Positions 3,359 to 14,538 of a DNA stretch of 49,580 nucleotides are shown here, in pieces (within the stretch, counting starts at the first letter, position 1; every line of letters starts with the position of its first letter). The stretch spans positions 1-49,580 of the forward strand of contig JALAGF010002067.1 in assembly GCA_030167865.1 (NCBI GenBank), written 5' to 3'. This DNA is from Craspedostauros australis. Lineage: Eukaryota. Under the pieces are notes generated by a model. That model made no database searches. It was not told the DNA's origin and was given only the letters and a program-made list of their open reading frames with translations. Both the position numbers and the translations under genes were made by a program.

Positions 3359-5203
3359 TCAATCCTCCATCACATACTCCCAACTGGCCATATATTTCCA
3401 GTCGTCTCGGATCGACCAATCTCTCTTTTCCGTTTCGTCACCCTCCCACGTCTGGTTGAGACTTTGTAGAAATCCCTCCCAAGATTCCTCATGGGCAAAA
3501 AGTCGCTTTATGTCGACACTGCACACCTCGCGTTTCGTGATAGTGACTTTACGGAAGGCTGCACGGTGCTCCAGTTCGCCCTGTGGCGACGCATACAGCT
3601 CCGGGAACATCCTCTTTTCGACGCCGAGTGAGAAATTCAGCATCTTTTCCAATTCCGTTTCCTTCGGACATGCCAAGGGGAGGTCTGCCATGGTCTTGTT
3701 GATGACTCGGCTGTGGTACTTTGCCAGGTCATCTGTCATCTCGATTCTGGTCTTGTTGGCCTGCATGCCCTTCGTGATCAACCCGCGATGGGCGGCAGCG
3801 TAGACGATCGCATTGTAATTGTACCATGCCATGCTGCGAGCATTCGTGACTGTGCCCTCTGACTTGCCTCGCAAGAACTGGCACGATGCTGGCGCATCTG
3901 TAATGATGCTACACATCAGCTGCTGGCTGATGTGCTCCTTCCCATGCACATTGAGAAACTCAAAGTTGAACCCAGCTTTCTCCAGCAGGTAGTGGGAAGC
4001 GTCGGAGTAAATGTATTTGTTGGTTTGAGTTGTGCAAAATTCCTCAGTTCTACAGGAGGAGATGCTAGTCCGGACCCACGATGTCAGTAGTGCCCACGTC
4101 TGACTAGCCTTCACGCCACCCTCAGCAGCCCATTTGCCATTCTTACCTGTTCCCGTCAGGTCTTTCGAGTTGGATTCCTTGATGCTACTGAGCATCCATT
4201 CAACGGCCCTGCGGTATGTGGCGAGGATGGTAATATCCCAATCCTTCAGGATGTGTTGGATGTTGGCAAGGTATTCCCGATTTCTATAAATCCCCGATGA
4301 TCCAAAACGCACTCTGTAGGAGTTTGCTTCATCACTCAAAATCAATGAGATCCCATCCTCATGCATGGTGTCCAGCAGATGCTGGATACGTTGGATGCAT
4401 GGCGGAATCTCAATGGATGGCTCCACCGTCAGCTGAGACGATGCCTTCAACGAGCCATCCTCCTGCGGCGTTTCGCGAGTCTGATTGCGATAATCTGCGT
4501 AGCTCCGCATGCAGTCCTCCTCCCACAAACCTTTTAGCACCTTCAATTTTGTGCCTTTGTGCAGATTTCCTGAGTGGCCACGTCCCCAGAACATGTACTT
4601 GTCTTGGATCAGCATCCCATTTTCGCTCAAATCCTTTAGATCGCCCTGGACGGTGGTCGTTGCGGTCTTGGATGGGCCAATGTGATAGATGAACCTCGTC
4701 TTGTTTTTCTTGCCTACAGTTGTTGACTGCGGCTGTTGTTCTTGGGGTTGTTGTTGTGGTTGTTGTTGTTGTGGTTGTTGTTGTTGTTGTTGTTGGTCTA
4801 GTTGTTGGTCTAGTTGTTGGTCTAGTTGTTCTTGCGGTTGTTGCTGGTCTAGTTGCTCTTGCGATTGCTGCTCTTGCGATTGTTGCTCTTGCAACTGCTG
4901 CTCTTGCAACTGTTGCTCTTGCAACTGTTGCTGCCCTGGTTGTTCTTGCGGTTGTTGTTCCTGTGACTGTTCTTGCTGCTCTTCGGGTGGCTGTTCTGGC
5001 CGCGCTTCCGCGTCAGAACTGTATGACTCGACCTCGGCGTCGGCGTGGATGACTTCAGCGTCCTTCAACTTCGGTGCCAAAAACTTCCGCAAATCCGTCT
5101 TGGAGAGGGTCATTGATTGCACCAGCAGACAGATGACGACGACAATCATGAGCCGAGCCATCCGTCGGCAGTGCTGTTTTTTCTTTGGCTGCGCGTCTTC
5201 CAT
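3359..5203 (-). CDS. Type II membrane protein with Gln-rich stalk and sulfotransferase-like domain
   Basis: First ATG at 5203 (MEDAQPKKK). Basic tail, then hydrophobic anchor (LMIVVVICLLV), QEQQ repeats, then FIYHIGPSKTATTTVQ (resembles the 5'-PAPS-binding loop HxxKTxxT) and ILATYRRAVEWMLS (resembles the 3'-PB motif). Confidence 0.6.
   Translation of the reverse strand: MEDAQPKKKQHCRRMARLMIVVVICLLVQSMTLSKTDLRKFLAPKLKDAEVIHADAEVESYSSDAEARPEQPPEEQQEQSQEQQPQEQPGQQQLQEQQLQEQQLQEQQSQEQQSQEQLDQQQPQEQLDQQLDQQLDQQQQQQQPQQQQPQQQPQEQQPQSTTVGKKNKTRFIYHIGPSKTATTTVQGDLKDLSENGMLIQDKYMFWGRGHSGNLHKGTKLKVLKGLWEEDCMRSYADYRNQTRETPQEDGSLKASSQLTVEPSIEIPPCIQRIQHLLDTMHEDGISLILSDEANSYRVRFGSSGIYRNREYLANIQHILKDWDITILATYRRAVEWMLSSIKESNSKDLTGTGKNGKWAAEGGVKASQTWALLTSWVRTSISSCRTEEFCTTQTNKYIYSDASHYLLEKAGFNFEFLNVHGKEHISQQLMCSIITDAPASCQFLRGKSEGTVTNARSMAWYNYNAIVYAAAHRGLITKGMQANKTRIEMTDDLAKYHSRVINKTMADLPLACPKETELEKMLNFSLGVEKRMFPELYASPQGELEHRAAFRKVTITKREVCSVDIKRLFAHEESWEGFLQSLNQTWEGDETEKRDWSIRDDWKYMASWEYVMED
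4730..4990 (-). repeat. Coding tandem repeats (15-nt QEQQL/QEQQS, 12-nt QQLD, CAA runs)
   Basis: Direct repeats such as ttgctcttgcaactg and tctagttgttgg are visible on the + strand. Confidence 0.9.
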
Positions 5204-5458
5204 CGTTGTGCGGTTCAAGTTTGGATTCGAGCCTGATGGCTACCCGAAGCTGCGATGATGCCCCGGCACCGGAGAGAATGCTCTTCCACTTGACCTCAGT
5301 GCTGTTCTCCTCGACTGGAATTGTTCCTGGTGGTGATGGCGATGGCACCGGTGGTGGTGTGGCGGTGATAGAAGTGAAGCGGCCGATGGTGATTGGTGAT
5401 GATGCCATGGGCACGGGACTGTGCCCTGTGAGTGCCCAAGCAAATCCAGAGATGTTTG

Positions 5459-5557
5459 TGTGAGAGGAGACTGTGAATTGGGGAAACACAGAATTTATGA
5501 GGTGTTCCTGTGGTGAGAGGAAGACGAGCACAGTCGGACATAGGCCAGACTGTGACA
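5459..5557 (-). repeat. 3' LTR (99 bp)
   Basis: tgtgagagg...gactgtgaca, base-for-base identical to 11752-11850. Confidence 0.97.
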
Positions 5558-5564
5558 CCCCCCC
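5558..5564 (-). other. Polypurine tract (G7) abutting the 3' LTR
   Basis: ccccccc on + reads GGGGGGG on the element strand, immediately before the LTR's TG. Confidence 0.85.
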
Positions 5565-5628
5565 ACGATCGCGAGGTCCAGAGGACCGCGTGATCGGAAC
5601 GCTAATTAACTAAGGTAATGAATATATA

Positions 5629-8600
5629 TCAAACATGCGCATGTGTAAGAGCCGCCGCCCAGGGAGGAACATTGCGCCCAGATAGGCAGTCCCAATGGCG
5701 AACGAACAGGGGAGGCGTAGTCTGTTTGGTGCCGATGTCACCAGCATTGACCGCTGAATCGATGTCGCGGAACAACACCATGTCGTTCTCAACCCACTGT
5801 TGTATGGCAAAGTGCCGAATCTCAACATGCCGAGTGCGCCTGGAAGGTTGACCGGCATTGGCGATCATGAGCGCCCCTCGATTGTCCTCGTAGAGCACCG
5901 TAGCACGCGATTGAGGTACTCCGAGCTCATCGAGCGTGCTTCGAAGGCATAGCGCCATGCGGCCCGCATCAGAAGCGCACAGAAGCTCCGCTTCAGTGCT
6001 GGACAGCGCGACGGTGGGCTGAACCCGTGCCTTCCAAGCCACGGCGCCACCAGCAAGCTTGAACGCCATGCTGGACACGGAGCGACGATGTCGTGAGTCA
6101 GACGCCCAGTCGCTGTCAGCGTACCCGTAGACCACAGATGGATCGTCATCGGGATGGACGTGACGCACATCATGTGGCTCCGAGACACGCAACGGAACAT
6201 CCACTTGTGGGAGAGCCGGCACCACCTTGGTGCGATGAAACGTGATGCCCTGCGTGCAAGTGGCGAACAGATACCGGAAGACTCGTTTGACGGCAGTGAA
6301 GTGTGCCAGTCCTGGAGCTGCGGAGAATTGCGCAAGCTTTATCACAGGAAACGCGATGTCAGGTCGGCACGTCACCATGGGCCAGATCAGCTCACCGATG
6401 GCGGCACGATAGGACCCAAAAGTAAGTTGAGCATGCTGTAGCCCAGCACCATCCAGAGGCGGCTCATCGTCCAGCATGCGGACATGACTGTTGTCAACCG
6501 CCATGGGCGTGCGAACCCCATGCATATCAGTCCATGCATGTCGCTCAAAGACCTTGTCCAGATACATGCCATTGTGCATCGAGATGTGCGTGCTGGTTTG
6601 AATGAGGTCCGTGCCATTGAAGTGCTTCAGTACGCCAAACCGCTTCATGGGAACGAAGAGGAATGCATCCAGCTCGTCGCAGATCCGTGCGTATGTACTC
6701 TCCGTCGCACACGCGATGGCGAAGTCATCGACCTGTCTCAGAAACAGTACGTCGTGACCATAGTAACGCGCACGGTATAGGCATGGAGCATGTGTCGTAG
6801 GTACGAACCCCATGCGCTGCAGTTGTGCGTCAATGTGCCGCGCCCACTGGCGTGGCGCCTCGGGATGCCCTTGCAGGTTCTTCTGGATGGGTATGACGTG
6901 CCCATAAGGTATGGGAGAGCGACCTTGTGATGCCCACCAGTCCGCGAACGGTTGATCCACGTGCATGTAGTACTTCTGAGCCCCGCATGGCGCCTCTGCA
7001 AATGCGTTGGAGACGTCGGCACCATAGATACATTTGTTCTCCATAGCCGCAACGGCAAGAAACAACCTGAAATCTGTGGCATCCGGAGTGGCTGTGAAAG
7101 TATGCCCAGTATTCACTGCCTTGCCAGCACGCGGTGAACCATCGCAGACTGCTCTGGCCTTGCGCCTCGTTTCGGTGGGGTTCTGTTTGAGGACATACAC
7201 CCACACCCAATGGAACACTTGGTCGCCCGGTCGCATCGCGACAGGCTTGCCAAACATGCCTTGGTCTGCATATTGCTGCAGCTGCTTGTGCTCGGATTGT
7301 TGCCAAAGCTCCCAGTCGTCTTGCTTGCGGAGCGCTCGTCTTGTGAGCTTCATGACGGTGCGCGTGGCAGACGCATCATCACACGCCAGTGCTTGCTTCG
7401 CCCGTTGGCATAGACCGCGTATGTCGCGCCATTGATCGAAGTAGAGTTGTATGAGACCCTTCTCGGACAGCGTGTTACGGACGGCGTCAAACGCAAAGGT
7501 CATGACGACATGCGGATTGCCATCCTCGCGAGCTGCCGACACCGCCTGTTCGAGTTCATGGACGTTGTGTATCTCCACTCCGTCCACAGCAAGAAGATAT
7601 GCGTGTCGTAGCCGATACCGCCACTGAGGAATCCTCCGGGCGCGATGCCCAGACGGGATGTCCAGTAGTCGAAGACGACCGCGCGTGTTATTGTCGTTCC
7701 AGACAATCCCGAGCTGCGGATGTTGCCCGAATAGTGGAATGTCCACGTCGAACGCCGTGTCGAATGGATGACTCGAGAAGTCAAGGAGCATCACGCCGCG
7801 TACCGAAACGTCCGTGGATACAGCAGCAGCCGAGGCCCCAGTGGGCATGACCATGCCTTCTCGAAGTGGCAGCGGCACGAGTGTAGCATCCCCACATGCA
7901 CGAGGAACCTTGTGAAGTACCACTGAGGGTTGACACGCCAGTGGTATGGCCTTGGAGGCGGTGCCGTCGCTGACATCGTCGCCGTCGTCTGGACATTCCA
8001 CGCCAAGGTCGAACAGGAGCTGTGCGGAGGGAGGTCGCTTGTTGCTCATGAAGTGTGCCTCATCAAATACCACAGACCCGCCAATCTTGACAGTGCCGGA
8101 CGTCATGTCGTAGTACCGGATGTTGACGCCATCCCCAAGGAATCCAAGGAAGATCCCGCGGTACGTATGGACGTCAAGCTTGCGCGCCGGCTTATCAGGC
8201 TTGCGCACGGTGACCAGGGCACCAAACACGCGTAGATGTGCAATGTCTGGCTTCACGCCATTAAGCGCCTCGTACGGCGTGCGCCCAATCGCAGAGCTCC
8301 ACATGCGGTTGCGTAGGTATGCGGAGTGAACGATGGCCGCGGACCAGAATTTGGGTTCCAGTCCTGCTCCATACAGCATGGACCTGACCATGACTGCAAG
8401 CACGCGATTGAGTCGCTCGACTTTGCCATTGCGATGGTGCACCCCGGAACCTGTGGGCTCCAGAACGTACCCCATGCCGCGAACCATGCCGGAAAACTCT
8501 TTGGAAGTGAAGAGCTCGCCGCCATGGTCGACGCGAAGCGCGCGGTACCCCGTTTGAAGGCCGAATCTTTGGAGATGCTCTCGCACAAGCTCGATGGGAG

Positions 8601-9681
8601 CACGTTTGCCGTCCGTAGGGAATACCCATGTGTATCGAGACACTGCATCCACAATGATGAGGTACGCGGTGCACCCATCAAAGGACGCCACCACAGGAGG
8701 CATGCCCTTCACCTTGTAATATCGGGCTGAACTGGCGCGCATGTACCCGAAGTCCAGGTGAAAGCGAGATCCATTCATCATATGACCCACTTGGGAGACG
8801 CCACCCCGTGGCTGTCGCTGTGCGTGTGCGTCCAGACACGCGTCACACGAGCGCAACGGATGCCTGTCTAGAGCCACAGAAGACGGTAGCCCAATGGAGT
8901 GCTTGGGGAGCTGTACCATCTGCTGGTGACCTGGATGACCAAGGCGTTGATGCCAAATTTCATACGACAGTGCACCACTGACGGCGTGGGCGACGTGCTT
9001 GTGTGCAGAGTATATGGTGGAGAAGAAGAAGAGATCGTTCGTCCTCACCATGGAGGCACGCTTGAACGTCGCAGCATCCTTTGTGTAGAACCGGACATGC
9101 GGATCATTGCGGTCACGACACACAACGTCGAATGTGTGAAAGACCTGCGAGTGCTCACATATGAGCTGGGGCGACAGCAGGGTGGCTGAGACATGTTCGC
9201 AGAAGAACATGGGAATGGGAATGACGTCGCCATCGTCCAGTCGGAAGGGGAACACTCCCTTGTGTGAGCACATCATGGCCTTGGACCGCGCATCCGCACC
9301 AGAAAGGTTGAGTGGATGTTCGAGCATACGACAGTCGATGAGCATGGCCTTGATACTGGTCACCAATATGTTGGCGCCCAAGTCACACTGCTGTCCCACC
9401 ATGTGATTGAATTGTCCGATGGGGACCACTTGGTGCAGCATCGGTACCGTCGACTCGTCCGCAGATAGCGAATGTGCGTGACACACATCGACTATGCAAG
9501 ACTGATCCACCATTGCCCAGCCACGGACGCGGCGTTGGACTGTACTGCTCTTGTGCGCAGGTTTGGCATCGAGCGCCGGCAGAGTGTCACCAACAGTGAC
9601 AGATCCTGCGCCTGCCGCGCTACCCATGAGAGCAAGCCGTTCACGAGGAGGTGCCTCTCCTCGCCGGCTTAGGGAAAATCC
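5629..9681 (-). CDS. pol: Copia pol polyprotein (protease, integrase, PDZ-like insert, RT, RNase H), probably expressed by -1 frameshift from gag
   Basis: Protease-like CDLGAN; integrase WHQRLGH...CDAC and D-D-E motifs (FHLDF, RVDHGGE, KVERLNR); RT KARAVC, DVSNAF, LQGHPEAPRQW, RQVDDF; RNase H YADSDWA, SSTEAE, YEDN, RHVEIR, NAGDIGTK. First ATG is at 9627, but the frame is open back to a TGA at 9717-9715. Confidence 0.95.
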   Translation of the reverse strand, partial: GFSLSRRGEAPPRERLALMGSAAGAGSVTVGDTLPALDAKPAHKSSTVQRRVRGWAMVDQSCIVDVCHAHSLSADESTVPMLHQVVPIGQFNHMVGQQCDLGANILVTSIKAMLIDCRMLEHPLNLSGADARSKAMMCSHKGVFPFRLDDGDVIPIPMFFCEHVSATLLSPQLICEHSQVFHTFDVVCRDRNDPHVRFYTKDAATFKRASMVRTNDLFFFSTIYSAHKHVAHAVSGALSYEIWHQRLGHPGHQQMVQLPKHSIGLPSSVALDRHPLRSCDACLDAHAQRQPRGGVSQVGHMMNGSRFHLDFGYMRASSARYYKVKGMPPVVASFDGCTAYLIIVDAVSRYTWVFPTDGKRAPIELVREHLQRFGLQTGYRALRVDHGGELFTSKEFSGMVRGMGYVLEPTGSGVHHRNGKVERLNRVLAVMVRSMLYGAGLEPKFWSAAIVHSAYLRNRMWSSAIGRTPYEALNGVKPDIAHLRVFGALVTVRKPDKPARKLDVHTYRGIFLGFLGDGVNIRYYDMTSGTVKIGGSVVFDEAHFMSNKRPPSAQLLFDLGVECPDDGDDVSDGTASKAIPLACQPSVVLHKVPRACGDATLVPLPLREGMVMPTGASAAAVSTDVSVRGVMLLDFSSHPFDTAFDVDIPLFGQHPQLGIVWNDNNTRGRLRLLDIPSGHRARRIPQWRYRLRHAYLLAVDGVEIHNVHELEQAVSAAREDGNPHVVMTFAFDAVRNTLSEKGLIQLYFDQWRDIRGLCQRAKQALACDDASATRTVMKLTRRALRKQDDWELWQQSEHKQLQQYADQGMFGKPVAMRPGDQVFHWVWVYVLKQNPTETRRKARAVCDGSPRAGKAVNTGHTFTATPDATDFRLFLAVAAMENKCIYGADVSNAFAEAPCGAQKYYMHVDQPFADWWASQGRSPIPYGHVIPIQKNLQGHPEAPRQWARHIDAQLQRMGFVPTTHAPCLYRARYYGHDVLFLRQVDDFAIACATESTYARICDELDAFLFVPMKRFGVLKHFNGTDLIQTSTHISMHNGMYLDKVFERHAWTDMHGVRTPMAVDNSHVRMLDDEPPLDGAGLQHAQLTFGSYRAAIGELIWPMVTCRPDIAFPVIKLAQFSAAPGLAHFTAVKRVFRYLFATCTQGITFHRTKVVPALPQVDVPLRVSEPHDVRHVHPDDDPSVVYGYADSDWASDSRHRRSVSSMAFKLAGGAVAWKARVQPTVALSSTEAELLCASDAGRMALCLRSTLDELGVPQSRATVLYEDNRGALMIANAGQPSRRTRHVEIRHFAIQQWVENDMVLFRDIDSAVNAGDIGTKQTTPPLFVRHWDCLSGRNVPPWAAALTHAHV
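9634..9681 (-). promoter_or_regulatory. Putative -1 programmed ribosomal frameshift signal: G_GAU_UUU heptamer plus bulged stem-loop
   Basis: Element strand reads CAG GAT TTT CCC TAA (gag end), and its -1 frame runs into pol. Hairpin at 9670-9634: AAGCCG-GCGAGGAG-[AGGCAC]-CUCCUCGU-(GAA)-CGGCUU. Confidence 0.8.
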
Positions 9682-11570
9682 TGCTCCAAGTGCATCACAG
9701 CCGTGAGGAGCTCCTCATCGGAGGGCTTCACGGAGGTGCCGGCGTCGTTGCCATCGACCTTGAGGAGCCGTGCGATCGCACGTCGAGTATCTGTCTTGCT
9801 GATGCGTCGCAGAGCAGTGCTGAGCTTGTCAGCCAGCTCCGTGTGCTTGTCACAATATTGTGCAAGGTGACGGTGACGTGCGAGGAAGATGCAGCTCTCG
9901 GCATGGTGGCCGCGTCGGCCACAAGCATCGCAGACTGCACCTGGTGCCGGCTGTCGAAAGACATTGCGACCCTCATCGTCATCGCCACGTCGGCCACGGG
10001 ATCGGTCAGGGCTGCGAGATTTGCGGCCATCGGACCTATCATCATCGAACCGCACACCGCGGCGTTGCGACCGGGTGACAGCATGGGCGGTGTGTCCCGA
10101 GTCTGCCATGGCAGCCAACTTGACGGCCAGCTCGCCCACATGTAACCCGGCAGGGAGCGCCTCTTGGTCAGGAACAGCCAAGACCATTTCACGGAACTGC
10201 CGAACGTTGTGACCGGCCCGCCCAACTTCATCAAGGAAGTGAATAGCCGCTCGACGCGGACTGTACTGATGAGCAGTTCCATGTTGGTTGAGGAACGCCA
10301 TCAACGCGGTGGCAAACCCAATGATGCCGTTGGCAGCAACGTAGTTGGGCAGTACGGGGAGACCGGCAGCCGCTGGGGCCGTGACCATGTACTGAAGCAC
10401 ACGATGGAGAAAGTTGAATGCACTCAGCATTTCATGTCCGCGCTCTTGGAGGAACGCCTGGCTATGTAGAGCCAATGGCGTGTCGGGCAAAACCTCAAGA
10501 GTACCTGGAGTGGTTAGCTTGAGGAAGTGAGCATTGTTGATCGCCGCGACCGTCGCACTGGGTAGCGATGACGGAAACACGACACAGTCCATGCGATACA
10601 TGAAAAGCGGAATGACATGCACACCAAACTGCGAGGCCACCTGTTGGTAGTGGTTGTACCACGTGCAGATGGCATGTGGCTCGAGTGAGGACAGCTTGGG
10701 GATGAACGCATCGGAGAAGCCGCGCAAATCAATGCTGACGCGAGAGCTTGCCCACACCTTCCAAGTTGGGTGTGGGCCAAGATCCGCGCCATACAGCATG
10801 GCGTGCTTGTACTTGGCGCGGTTTGCCGCCTCGTCGCGCCGAATGTCCTCGTAAAAGTCAGGACACTCGCTGGCGCGGGTGGGCACAACCGCGCTGGGAG
10901 CAAAGCGCGCTGGGGGCACACGTGGTGTGCGTGTGTCAGGAGTGTCGACACCAGCATTGAACATGGCAGCAAGATCTGGGTCCGCCACAAAGCTGTGGGC
11001 GTCGCCATCGGCATTGCCCGAGTTATCACGAGGGTGATCGTCGTCACGGGCACGGTCTTCATGCAAGTTGGAAGCCGTGCGCGTGGTGTCTTGGGGAGCA
11101 GAGGCTGCCGCAGCCATGGACGCTTCCAGAGGAGTGCCACCACGGTACATGGTAGAGTTGAAGTCGCCCCATTGGAAGGCAGTAGGAAGTGTGGATTTTT
11201 GAAACCAACCGCGAAGTGTCTTGAGCTCGTTGAGGTCAGCGGGATCAATGTCGCCGAAGCGCTGGAGCGCCGTAGACGTGCGACGATCGTCCTCGACTGA
11301 GAGAAGATGTTGCAGGCGCCCCCAGACAGCATCCTCGTCCTCGCAGTACTGGAAGTACTTCGCAACGACCGCAATGCCGCTCGGAGAGAAGAACGCGGTG
11401 CGTAGGACGGGTCGAATCAGAGCGCCAGGTGCGAATGCAACCGCTGCCGGTGGCAGCGTTGCGCCATCAGCAGGAGCACCATTTCGCACGTTGCCGGCAG
11501 GAGGCGCGGCATGAGCAGGGTTGTCATTGCCGGACCCGCCGGTGCTGGGAGAGCTGCTGTTGCGCGTCAT
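9669..11570 (-). CDS. gag: Copia gag (633 aa) with CCHC zinc knuckle
   Basis: First ORF after the 5' LTR. CDACGRRGHHAESC matches Cx2Cx4Hx4C and follows an R/D/S-rich region. Confidence 0.9.
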   Translation of the reverse strand: MTRNSSSPSTGGSGNDNPAHAAPPAGNVRNGAPADGATLPPAAVAFAPGALIRPVLRTAFFSPSGIAVVAKYFQYCEDEDAVWGRLQHLLSVEDDRRTSTALQRFGDIDPADLNELKTLRGWFQKSTLPTAFQWGDFNSTMYRGGTPLEASMAAAASAPQDTTRTASNLHEDRARDDDHPRDNSGNADGDAHSFVADPDLAAMFNAGVDTPDTRTPRVPPARFAPSAVVPTRASECPDFYEDIRRDEAANRAKYKHAMLYGADLGPHPTWKVWASSRVSIDLRGFSDAFIPKLSSLEPHAICTWYNHYQQVASQFGVHVIPLFMYRMDCVVFPSSLPSATVAAINNAHFLKLTTPGTLEVLPDTPLALHSQAFLQERGHEMLSAFNFLHRVLQYMVTAPAAAGLPVLPNYVAANGIIGFATALMAFLNQHGTAHQYSPRRAAIHFLDEVGRAGHNVRQFREMVLAVPDQEALPAGLHVGELAVKLAAMADSGHTAHAVTRSQRRGVRFDDDRSDGRKSRSPDRSRGRRGDDDEGRNVFRQPAPGAVCDACGRRGHHAESCIFLARHRHLAQYCDKHTELADKLSTALRRISKTDTRRAIARLLKVDGNDAGTSVKPSDEELLTAVMHLEQDFP

Positions 11571-11739
11571 GGTGATGATGGCGAAAGAGCCGGAGGTGTT
11601 TGTTGTGTGTGTTCGTTTTTTTTTGAATTGTGGAGTATGCGAAAAACAGCCAGAACACCAACGATCAGACCAATGACGGCGCTGGGTTGGGTGGAACGGC
11701 AGTGAAAACGCGTGTGTAAGACCGTGAGGTCAGAAAGAA

Positions 11740-11751
11740 GGCTCGAAAACC
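11740..11751 (-). other. Putative primer binding site GGTTTTCGAGCC
   Basis: Directly follows the 5' LTR's CA. Resembles the anticodon-arm (half-tRNA iMet) type PBS GGTTATGAGCC, with one mismatch and one extra base. Confidence 0.5.
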
Positions 11752-11850
11752 TGTGAGAGGAGACTGTGAATTGGGGAAACACAGAATTTATGAGGTGTTC
11801 CTGTGGTGAGAGGAAGACGAGCACAGTCGGACATAGGCCAGACTGTGACA
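11752..11850 (-). repeat. 5' LTR (99 bp)
   Basis: Identical to 5459-5557; flanked by TSD GTTTG at 11851-11855. Confidence 0.97.
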
Positions 11851-12211
11851 GTTTGGGTGATTGGTGAGGAGAGTGTGAGCTCAACAACCTGGGAAGGAGA
11901 TGTCGCCAATGACATGTAACTGCCCCCTCGGCCAGAGTCGACGGGGATGACACTACCTGCGGCTCCCAAAAAATGCGAAGCGCGAACACTTGTTGCGTGG
12001 ATTTGGTCCCTTTTGGACGCTGGTTTGGTCCTGTTGGGAGAAACGGCGATTGCGTATTTAGAGCTATTTTGTGTTTTCTCTCTCCGATCCGTCTTCCACG
12101 TCACATGAAACGAATGCCACGCCATGCAAAACCATTCACAACACAACACGATTGTTGGTTTCGCCGCAAACCACAACAACACAATCCCAAAAAACGCCCA
12201 CAACGACGAGG

Positions 12212-14538
12212 ATGGTGATGAGATCGTTGCTCTCCATCGTGGCATTGCACATTGTCGCTGTCCGGAGAGCTGCCGCATTGCACGCAACGGCACGCATGCG
12301 GTTCAACAATCAATTCTTACGTCAAAGCCGAAGATGCTACTGGCACAGCATCCGTCGGAGCAGCCATGATCGATCAATGTTCCATGCTTCGACGTTTCGG
12401 ATGATGCCCGAAGGCCCGGAGGTCCGCAATCTGGCGGATCAGTTCCAGCATGGTGTTGGGAAGCGACTGATTGACATTCAGTTCCTTTCAGGTCGTTACG
12501 TTCGCCATGATAAGCCCGTGGGATTTTACGGTTTTGCTAAGACCATGACGAAGGCCGTCAGCGCGCCGGCGAATAGCAACACCGCTGGCGGCAGCGTTCG
12601 CCACAAAGATGGCGACCATGTTGGAGGTGAGGATCCAGCTGAGAACAATCCACTGCTCCCAACCATCGACACCGTCGTGAAGTGGAGTTGCAAAGGCAAA
12701 TTCATGTACATCATCTTGGATGACGGTGGCAGGAGTCGTACCGAACCTTCGCACGATGAAGATGACTTCCAACGAAGCATCTGGATCACGCTCGGTATGA
12801 CTGGTTGGTTTGTGGGAGAGGCGAAGCATCACGAGGATCCAACCCACGGTAGGTGGTACCTGGATTTGGTGGACACGGAGACGGGGAACAAGTTGCGCAC
12901 GTACTACCACGACCGTCGCAATTTTGGAACGCTCAAGTTTTCTCTTTCCAAGAAGGAGCTCGATGACAAGCTGTCGTCATTGGGGTATGATCTCATGGAC
13001 GCGTCCACCTCTGAGGATTTGTTCTTGACCACAATGGCGAATCAGAATCAGGACATGAACATTTGCAAGTTCCTCATGAATCAATCGGTAAGTGATTGTT
13101 GACTCCGTTGTGCTGGTGTCATGGCCTGCTGCAGTGCTTTCGGAACCTGCTTCATGTATTGAGTGTGGGAAAATCTTTGCTTTCCACCAGCGATATCAAT
13201 GGTGATGGTAAGATCATTGCGTCTACCAATCGTAGCAGGCAACTGTAATGTTGGCCGTGCAACGGCATACGAAAGCAAAGCATCTGACGAGCGATGTTTC
13301 GAACATGCTTATTTTCACGCGTTGATGTGGTACATGTGACACGACATGCCATGGTATTCAACTTGCAGAAGATCGCTGGCGTTGGAAACTACATCCTTGC
13401 GGAGGGTCTCCATAGAAGCCTGATCGATCCTTTCGCATCCCTCGACGAACTTCACGAAAGGCAACGGCGCACTCTCTTCAATGAATTGCGGTTGGTCATG
13501 ATGCAGTCGTATGCAAAGCAACAGCGCAGGTGGCTGAAGGATAGTATCAAAACGCCAGGCACAAAAAGCGGAAACGGTGAGGCAGATGCTGATGCAAATT
13601 CATCAGGCTTGGCAGAGTTCGAGTTGCAATGCTACAACCGAGCAAGGTGTCCACAGGGAGAGGAAGTTATTCGAGATACCGCAGGACCCCACGGGAGAAC
13701 GATATGGTACACGAAGAAGCAACTCTTCAAACCGTTGGATGAACGGTTCGTGTCCCTTTCACACCACCAAGCACAAACTGAGCACCGCAATGGATCAGAT
13801 GATGCTGAAGCAGCTCGATCTCAGAACGCCAACGATTGGAAACACGTTGATCTCGTCCAGCAGCTGTCGGACGAAGGCTGGAAGGGAGCACTGCAACACA
13901 TTCTGGAATCCGAACGCTTTCAAAATCTTCAAGCATTCTTGCAAGATGAGGCTGCCTCGGGCGCCACGATATTTCCCCCGCCTCAGCAAGTCTTCGCTTC
14001 GTTGAATCAATGCCGGTTTGACGACGTGAAGATTGTTATTGTCGGTCAGGATCCGTACCACGGCGCTGGTCAAGGTCATGGCTTGGCATTCTCGGTGCAA
14101 AAGGATGTGCCGCCACCTCCATCATTGAAGAATATCATTCAAGAATTGAAAGATGATGTTGGCATCAAACAGCCGGTGCATGGGAATTTGGAAAGCTGGT
14201 CACGGCAAGGAGTGTTGTTGCTGAACAGCGTGCTGACGGTGCGGCAGGGCGAGGCAAACAGCCACGCAAAGAAAGGGTGGGAGGAAGTTACCGATGCCAT
14301 CATTGAAGCGTTGAATCAGAGGGAGGACGGGTTGGTGTTTCTCCTTTGGGGCAACCCAGCTCAAAAGAAAGCATCGGGCGTGAACACAGAAAAACACGTG
14401 GTGATCAAGACTTCGCATCCATCTCCGCTGGGGGCAAGACGGACGGCATCGCCCTTCCTTGGATCACGATGCTTCAGTGATGCCAACCGTTCTCTTGCTC
14501 TCGTGGACAAAGCTGCTGTCGACTGGAATATCGTCTGA
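12212..14538 (+). CDS. Fpg/Nei DNA glycosylase fused to family-1 uracil-DNA glycosylase; exons 12212-13087 and 13369-14538
   Basis: Fpg/Nei motifs MPEGPEV (12404), KGK, LGMTG, DRRNFG. A GT..AG intron at 13088-13368 joins FLMNQS to KIAGVGNYILAE and restores the H2TH motif. Then RTIWY finger region, a linker, and UNG motifs VGQDPYH, GLAFSV, PPSLKNI, GVLLLNSVLTV, HPSPL, with no stop between the domains. Confidence 0.9.

Follow-up and report, generated by a model that had tools for sequence, protein, structure and literature searches.

The window analysed here is the whole of a 49,580-nucleotide stretch of DNA from Craspedostauros australis (contig JALAGF010002067.1, positions 1 to 49,580). On its minus strand, at positions 5459-11850, lies a complete Ty1/copia-type long terminal repeat (LTR) retrotransposon of 6392 bp, in which gag and pol are read in different frames; the junction between these two genes is the subject of this report. 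The TG...CA ends of the LTRs and the 5-bp target-site duplication are those of Ty1/copia (Pseudoviridae-type) elements, and so is the order of domains in pol, protease - integrase - reverse transcriptase. When the element was used as a query against the window, blastn and tblastn matched only the element itself. The element is young and intact. Because its LTRs are identical, the 5-bp duplication is present and both open reading frames (ORFs) are unbroken, the break in frame between gag and pol is not a product of decay. Coordinates of the element and of its parts are collected in Table 1.

The 3′ end of gag reads CAG GAT TTT CCC TAA. The pol frame lies at -1 relative to gag and runs open from 9714 to 5632, and both frames are open over 9714-9672 only, a distance of 43 nt. 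This overlap contains the heptamer G_GAU_UUU, which specifies Asp-Phe in the gag frame and is the sole A- or U-run heptamer within it. A downstream ORF in the -1 frame that is open across the slip site and overlaps the end of the upstream gene is the arrangement expected of -1 frameshifting, and it is the arrangement found. Upon a shift of one base backwards, the A-site codon would re-pair perfectly (UUU to UUU) and the P-site codon at 2 of 3 positions (GAU to GGA). The heptamer is followed by a predicted hairpin whose first A-U pair is 4 nt away and whose first G-C pair is 6 nt away; as the first two pairs of the stem are A-U, the effective spacer is 4-6 nt. The original prediction, made from the letters of the window, had described this gag end, the -1 pol frame and an overlap bounded upstream by a TGA, and all of it was borne out base for base. 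The heptamer sits on the minus strand exactly where it had been placed in the overlap, and RNAfold returned precisely the structure that had been described 4 nt further on, a 6-bp stem, a GAA bulge, an 8-bp stem and a 6-nt loop.

Both the stability of this hairpin and its pairing with a slippery heptamer are rare. The predicted fold has a free energy of -21.9 kcal/mol, compared with -11.9 (sd 2.5) for shuffled sequences (z -4.0), and none of 200 shuffles folded as well. In a 301-nt context, 13 of the 14 pairs form at probabilities of 0.96-1.0, the outermost A-U pair at 0.71. Folds of -21.9 or better occurred in 6 of 19,800 40-nt windows taken from both strands at a step of 5, and inside the element the only 40-nt windows that reached -20 were at the hairpin site and at 10823-10821, inside gag. 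GGATTTT occurs 3 times in 49.6 kb on the minus strand. The two strands of the window together contain 87 slippery-type heptamers; a hairpin of -15 or better begins 3-9 nt downstream of 3 of them, and the one behind this G_GAU_UUU is the strongest (-22.7). It is most unlikely that the best heptamer-hairpin pair would fall by coincidence inside a 43-nt overlap and in the right frame. The site at 10823-10821 belongs to a second very stable hairpin, at 10775-10830 on the minus strand, inside gag, with -25.4 kcal/mol over 56 nt.

A programmed -1 ribosomal frameshift at G_GAU_UUU, joining gag to pol, is in our judgement the best explanation of this junction, and a likely one. The anatomy of the site, its rarity and the protein-level footprints in relatives are observations; that ribosomes shift at G_GAU_UUU, and how often, is what we infer. 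Genomic RNA would be translated from the gag AUG, and most ribosomes would terminate at the UAA at 9671-9669 to release Gag. A minority, we propose, would be held up by the 14-bp bulged hairpin 4-6 nt downstream, which would resist unwinding, while GAU occupies the P site and UUU the A site. tRNA-Asp (GAU to GGA) and tRNA-Phe (UUU to UUU) would then slip back one base in tandem, and translation would go on in the pol frame to give a Gag-Pol fusion with the junction ...Glu-Gln-Asp-Phe / Ser-Leu-Ser-Arg.... Such a fusion would bring protease, integrase and reverse transcriptase/RNase H into the particle in a small and constant proportion relative to Gag. The stop codon 3 nt past the heptamer, at the base of the hairpin, may raise efficiency, as it does in pea enation mosaic virus 2 (PEMV2). 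The four U residues of the heptamer form a short U-run at the right place for a different event, stuttering of the polymerase to yield transcripts one base longer or shorter. Known sites of transcriptional slippage need longer homopolymers, generally of 6 or more, and a 3′ hairpin with an adjacent stop codon marks a ribosomal, not a transcriptional, signal; we regard slippage during transcription as highly improbable.

Footprints of the proposed frameshift site are visible in the Gag proteins of related elements. A full HMMER search (E <= 0.001) returned 32 gag homologs. The C-terminal region is present in 23 of them, and in 18 of the 23 Asp-Phe stands 0-7 residues before the end of the protein (endings include QDFC, ADF, SDFP, ADFP, TDFR, PDFQSPG and QDFINAGQM). 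The five without an Asp-Phe end are a fragment (P0088), two proteins with divergent tails (P0090 and P0095) and two single-ORF proteins (P0101 and P0105). In all 18, the residue preceding Asp is Q, A, E, S, T or P. An NNG codon is possible for each of these, as xxG_GAU_UUU requires; Asp and Asn, common in these acidic Gag tails, never occupy that position. Ala-Gly is found at +3/+4 in 5 of the 8 tails that have at least 4 residues past Asp-Phe, and at the same spacing the window has GCC GGC, the start of the stem just past the gag stop.

On the pol side, P0121 (54% identical in pol) was compared, a longer protein from the cluster to which the closest pol relative belongs. P0121 starts MATTDADGGFSLSRSLHSDTNDERL..., and the window pol frame reads ...DALGAGFSLSRRGEAPPRERL...; in the shared portion ...GGFSLSR...NDERL of P0121 stands against ...GAGFSLSR...PRERL of the window. 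GFSLSR in the window is the -1 reading of GGA UUU UCC CUA AGC CGG, which comprises the heptamer, the spacer, the stop codon and the 5′ strand of the lower stem, and ERL is GAA CGG CUU, the bulge and the 3′ strand of the lower stem. (N/D)ERL is also present near the starts of P0003 and P0005. The rest of the linker ahead of the protease, about 110 residues long, is barely alignable between the window and P0121. Both islands lie upstream of the first pol-frame AUG of the window (9627), so translation of GFSLSR...ERL would require ribosomes to cross from gag into the pol frame no later than the heptamer. Either RNA or peptide may be what has been conserved in these islands.

These observations bear on a second account of the junction, in which Pol is made apart from Gag and the heptamer and hairpin have no role in the frame change. 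Translation would begin at AUG 9627, by reinitiation 44 nt past the gag stop or on a spliced or subgenomic RNA, or a splice would join the two frames. Some retroelements, foamy viruses and Drosophila copia among them, do express Pol or Gag from spliced RNAs; a pol-frame AUG is present 16 codons past the heptamer, and in relatives gene callers put pol starts near the junction. The original prediction had asked whether a separate pol RNA starts at this ATG, and we found that the position of the first pol-frame AUG is not conserved: in 4 of 4 lineages where it is visible it differs. P0121 has it ahead of the heptamer and P0003 at the heptamer, P0005 has it immediately ahead of ERL, and the window has it past the hairpin. 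This variation argues against a dedicated pol start codon. Retention in P0121 of GFSLSR...ERL, upstream of the window's AUG, also speaks against separate production, as does the C at -3 of AUG 9627, and reinitiation after a 633-codon ORF is normally negligible. Since it further leaves unexplained both the rare pairing of heptamer with hairpin and the Asp-Phe ends of Gag, we consider separate production of Pol unlikely.

The arrangement of frames in relatives was examined next to these footprints. No gag domain is present in the closest pol relatives (P0002-P0012), which share 44-56% identity across the first 560 residues; each is an ORF of its own, 902-1387 aa long, and the gag homologs likewise stand alone. 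Sister copies with gag and pol in a single frame had been named in the original prediction as a finding that would speak against it; in the closer relatives gag and pol are separate ORFs. Metagenome assemblies and one MMETSP transcript are the sources of the nearest proteins. A search of viral contigs found no relative of the element, a search of genome contigs found only 4 weak, unrelated integrase-like loci, and word-index protein searches with Gag residues 330-633 and with the Gag alignment A2 gave no match.

DNA of relatives was obtained from one metagenome scan, which covered the best 80 of 97 relatives. Within these 80, the closer loci, at 42-55% identity (L006 54%, L050 55%, L002 42%), end short of the gag-pol junction. 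Nine loci cover the protease and the DNA upstream of it, and in 7 of the 9 (L001, L004, L005, L008, L022, L025 and L045) gag and pol share one frame and are separated by a single TGA, 150-530 nt ahead of the protease match. The same in-frame TGA arrangement is present in a second element contained in L003, which over the final 60 nt of gag matches L004 exactly. As L003 and L004 share these 60 nt, the in-frame TGA is inherited and not damage. In these eight loci pol is 33-39% identical to that of the window element and GC content is about 0.4. The flanking ORFs, which run from several hundred to more than 1,700 codons, hold no other TGA, and we therefore read TGA as a stop codon in them. Judged from their sequences, these eight loci probably use programmed UGA readthrough; no shared motif or structure was obvious downstream of the TGA. 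In the distant relatives P0105 and P0101, gag and protease/pol form one continuous ORF. At the level of sequence, then, the wider clade uses three solutions at a homologous Gag/Pol boundary.

Three further loci were set aside. L030 was considered as a second -1 case and rejected, as its frame break falls inside the N-terminal region of the integrase (1659-1932) and the copy is degenerate; its gag frame is closed at 633 and open again from 652. L067 is a broken copy. L047 is a plant-like copia with an out-of-frame gag tail that lacks the heptamer, and its frame change is probably an indel.

Degenerate, frame-broken copies of this kind (L030 inside the integrase, L047) and the distant one-ORF gag-pol relatives P0105 and P0101 lend some weight to the view that the frame break in the window is itself an accident, either a 1-nt indel in a dead single-ORF copy or an assembly error, with heptamer and hairpin present by coincidence; that the window holds one copy only points the same way. 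This account has to contend with LTRs that are identical, a target duplication that is intact, and ORFs of 633 and 1361 aa that have no other defect. Homologous Gags in 18 lineages stop 0-7 codons past the same Asp-Phe, the closer pol relatives are separate ORFs, and the pol frame of P0121 is open across the same site with the same residues. We regard an accidental origin as very unlikely. Production of Gag-Pol by -1 slippage just before the gag stop, as originally predicted, is supported by the intact, young state of the element, by the Asp-Phe ends and by the -1-frame reading preserved in P0121, and it withstood each test applied here that could have spoken against it.

Several observations count against a frameshift at G_GAU_UUU, or reduce the weight of the evidence for it. 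The heptamer is not strictly of the canonical form X_XXY_YYZ, since its first triplet on slippage is GGA and not XXX, and its spacer, nominally 4 nt, is short by the usual measure of about 5-9 nt. Excerpts of PMC4737148 report that a spacer of 9 nt reduces shifting in PEMV2 7-fold and one of 2 nt reduces it 11-fold, and by the latter figure the short spacer of the element is a point on the negative side. The hairpin is exceptional on its own, but a 76-nt stretch that includes its flanks is not unusually stable (z -0.71; 38 of 200 shuffles folded as well). No Rfam family matched the signal at threshold, the best sub-threshold hit being a chance match to sR10 at 17.9 bits, against the 45 needed. 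The heptamer is seen at the nucleotide level in one element only, and any conservation of it in close relatives is read from proteins. Alignment A2, with a mean column identity of 24%, has 8 invariant columns, among them Phe632 and the knuckle cysteines, but the rows of A2 were chosen for complete C-termini and all end in DF, and the unbiased measure is the count of 18 in 23 alone.

The remaining difficulties concern the peptide that the site encodes. The in-frame-UGA relatives carry [D/E/Q]-[F/I]-D-[S/P] 6-7 codons ahead of the stop, with the codons GAC TTC, GAT TTC, CAA TTT, GAC TTT, GAA TTT or GAA ATC. In-frame GAT TTT is present at this motif in 0 of the 8 loci; L045 has one about 15 codons further upstream. 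An acidic motif with Phe was thus in place before the frameshift arrangement, and constraint on the protein may account for some of the Asp-Phe conservation. The group ending in DF is set apart by an invariant Asp (D, E or Q in the UGA relatives) and by a stop within 0-7 codons. The single-ORF relatives P0105 and P0101 have GFGLSIR after an acidic ...EDLF or ...EDYF stretch, resembling GFSLSR in the window. Its presence in single-ORF relatives argues for some constraint on the peptide, and GFSLSR may owe its conservation to the peptide and not to the RNA; GFGLSIR/GFSLSR may be a conserved Gag/Pol-boundary peptide, for example a protease cleavage site.

With these reservations, we tentatively extend programmed frameshifting from the window element to its relatives. 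It is possible that a clade of marine-protist copia elements has fixed xxG_GAU_UUU, a nearby stop and a GC-rich bulged hairpin, converging on the layout of plant tombusvirids, and that sister sub-lineages use UGA readthrough or a single ORF. The original prediction had suggested a trait shared among copia lineages of diatoms. Part of this stands, in that 18 of 23 gag homologs with a C-terminal region have Asp-Phe ends; it does not hold for the eight more distant loci with UGA at the boundary or for the two with a single ORF. If the extended proposal is true, the slip site would have been recruited from an Asp-Phe codon pair that was first a peptide motif, and members of the clade would form a natural series in which to study how elements switch recoding strategy. 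If the signal works, it would supply an annotation rule for the clade, namely that gag and pol be joined at ...Asp-Phe, and would explain the odd, invariant Asp-Phe end of otherwise fast-evolving Gags. It would also mean that plant RNA viruses are not alone in combining GGAUUUU with an adjacent stop and a bulged hairpin. The signal opens no new kind of mechanism.

Table 1. Coordinates of the element, its gag-pol junction and the in-frame TGA codons of related loci (window positions, except where a locus is named)
Feature	Position	Strand	Description
5′ LTR	11752-11850	minus	99 nt, TG...CA ends, 100% identical to 3′ LTR (direct-repeat comparison)
3′ LTR	5459-5557	minus	99 nt, direct repeat
Target-site duplication CAAAC, 5 bp	11851-11855 and 5454-5458	minus	read in the flanks of the element
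Putative primer-binding site GGTTTTCGAGCC	11740-11751	minus	directly 3′ of 5′ LTR; by position only
Polypurine tract, G-run	5558-5566	minus	adjoins 3′ LTR; by position
gag ORF	9669-11570	minus	633 aa, ATG 11570 to stop UAA 9671-9669; 32 homologs (full HMMER search)
TGA closing pol frame upstream	9717-9715	minus	confines any frame change to 9714-9672
Slippery heptamer G_GAU_UUU (candidate)	9681-9675	minus	gag frame, codons Asp-Phe, inside gag/pol overlap
Spacer CCCU	9674-9671	minus	4 nt, effective 4-6 nt
Stimulatory hairpin (predicted)	9670-9634	minus	14 bp, RNAfold; gag stop codon at base
Hairpin lower stem	9670-9665/9639-9634	minus	6 bp
Hairpin upper stem	9664-9657/9650-9643	minus	8 bp including one G-U
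Hairpin loop	9656-9651	minus	6 nt
Hairpin bulge GAA	9642-9640	minus	3 nt
First pol-frame AUG	9627-9625	minus	pol residue 30, 16 codons past heptamer; candidate start if Pol is made separately
pol ORF	5629-9714	minus	1361 aa + stop, -1 frame relative to gag
Protease-like motif CDLGAN	9370-9387	minus	pol residues 110-115; sequence motif
gag_pre-integrs	8833-8997	minus	pol residues 240-294; Pfam
SH3_retrovirus, integrase SH3-like domain	8050-8259	minus	pol residues 486-555; Pfam
RVT_2, copia-type reverse transcriptase family	6502-7206	minus	pol residues 837-1071; Pfam
In-frame TGA at homologous boundary	L001 2088-2090
In-frame TGA at homologous boundary	L003 5805-5807
In-frame TGA at homologous boundary	L004 500-502
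In-frame TGA at homologous boundary	L005 3194-3196
In-frame TGA at homologous boundary	L008 3515-3517
In-frame TGA at homologous boundary	L022 982-984
In-frame TGA at homologous boundary	L025 2949-2951
In-frame TGA at homologous boundary	L045 3470-3472

Features of Gag outside the junction are suggestive of a retroelement capsid protein. Gag carries a CCHC knuckle (C-X2-C-X4-H-X4-C) at residues 547-560 (9891-9932) and a capsid (CA)-like helical region at about residues 284-493, and no Pfam family matched in it. An AlphaFold2 model built from alignment A2 has a mean predicted local distance difference test (pLDDT) score of 68.7 and is confident over residues 40-140 and 235-490. Foldseek of this model against the PDB gave no match at E <= 0.001. 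With residues 284-493 as query, the top rows from VIA-align were mostly retroelement capsid chains, at Z 5.6-7.2, values under the tool's own caution level; they include the C-terminal domain (CTD) of Ty1 CA (7.2), PNMA2 (7.2) and the CA-CTD of murine leukaemia virus (7.1), as well as Rous sarcoma virus, Arc, human endogenous retrovirus K and Drosophila copia capsid (Z 6.3, 5.7). The model suggests a capsid-like fold. A search of the ESM Atlas returned only unnamed clusters bearing zf-CCHC, at 0.92. Residues 46-131 (about 11178-11435, minus strand) form an N-terminal helical domain that is confidently folded in the model; its best VIA-align matches, all weak, were the LEAFY oligomerisation domain (Z 5.8), a SAM domain (5.7) and Sla1 homology domain 2 (5.4).

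The putative primer-binding site GGTTTTCGAGCC begins without the usual TGG. The rest of the window is gene-dense eukaryotic DNA with long, uninterrupted ORFs (SNF2 helicase, HECT ligase, RPE65, PhyH and others). A 626-aa open frame that matches no Pfam family, at 3359-5239 on the minus strand, starts about 220 bp past the 3′ LTR, which places the insertion between this ORF and the Fpg/UDG-like ORFs at 12062-14538. The window sequence has one N, at position 1717.

In retroviruses, and in many gypsy/BEL elements, -1 frameshifting between gag and pol is textbook knowledge; it is unusual for Ty1/copia elements, which mostly have one ORF. Gao et al. 2003 (RNA 9:1422) reportedly found -1 sites to be common in animal gypsy/BEL elements and copia elements to have mostly one ORF. 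Other strategies known in Ty1/copia elements are a single gag-pol ORF, the +1 frameshift of Ty1, and an in-frame stop with readthrough (Tca2). These elements are of the same class as the window element and have the same need for less Pol than Gag; the window element differs in having pol at -1 with a viral-type slip site. Also comparable are the CoDi elements (copia of diatoms), Ty1/copia elements of marine protists that have TG/CA LTR ends, as does the window element (PMC2806351). The main text of the paper on CoDi elements, Maumus et al. 2009 (PMC2806351), names no slip site or structure. More widely, our literature search, covering main texts, found no slip site or stimulatory structure described for marine-protist copia elements, and the word 'frameshift' is absent from the main texts of PMC2774666 and PMC8147415.

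The -1 sites of retroviruses and of Ty3/gypsy and BEL elements, such as U_UUU_UUA with a stem-loop in human immunodeficiency virus type 1, share the logic proposed here: pol lies in -1 and overlaps gag briefly, and a heptamer is coupled to a 3′ structure on which the ratio of Gag to Gag-Pol depends. Those sites are mostly canonical X_XXY_YYZ, whereas the window element, of Ty1/copia type, has a heptamer that is non-canonical and a signal that includes a stop codon. In a 2003 survey, as summarised in the excerpts of PMC5009743, pol was in -1 in 28 of 51 animal retroelements.

The nearest counterpart of the signal as a whole is that of PEMV2, an umbravirus. The original prediction had held that GGAUUUU with a bulged hairpin drives -1 shifting in plant viruses, and this agrees with what excerpts of PMC4737148 and PMC5009743 give for PEMV2, a signal of G_GAU_UUU_UGG_UAG with a 5-nt spacer and the stop at the base of a bulged hairpin. 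According to the same excerpts of PMC4737148, mutation of the U-run abolishes shifting, GGGUUUU gives 112% of wild type, and conversion of the stop to a sense codon lowers shifting by 72%. As far as these excerpts go, the heptamers of virus and element are identical, and in both the zero-frame stop comes 3 nt past the heptamer (UGG UAG in PEMV2, CCC UAA in the element), at the base of a bulged stem-loop; the spacers are 5 nt and 4-6 nt, respectively. The hairpin of PEMV2 is large and has two internal bulges, whereas that of the element is smaller, with 14 bp and one 3-nt bulge. PEMV2 is a plus-strand RNA virus that uses its signal to make an RNA-dependent RNA polymerase; the element is a nuclear LTR retrotransposon, whose RNA would make Gag-Pol. 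Signals related to that of PEMV2 are found in red clover necrotic mosaic virus (a dianthovirus) and barley yellow dwarf virus (a luteovirus). Tombusvirid signals (umbra-, diantho- and luteoviruses) involve long-distance pairing of the hairpin to a 3′-terminal element. In the window element, complements of the loop are at chance level by exact 6-nt matches: one in the element (9059), compared with 1.6 expected, and none in the 3′ region. The signal of the element is not a member of the tombusvirid family and has no sequence relationship to it, and its resemblance to those signals is one of mechanism.

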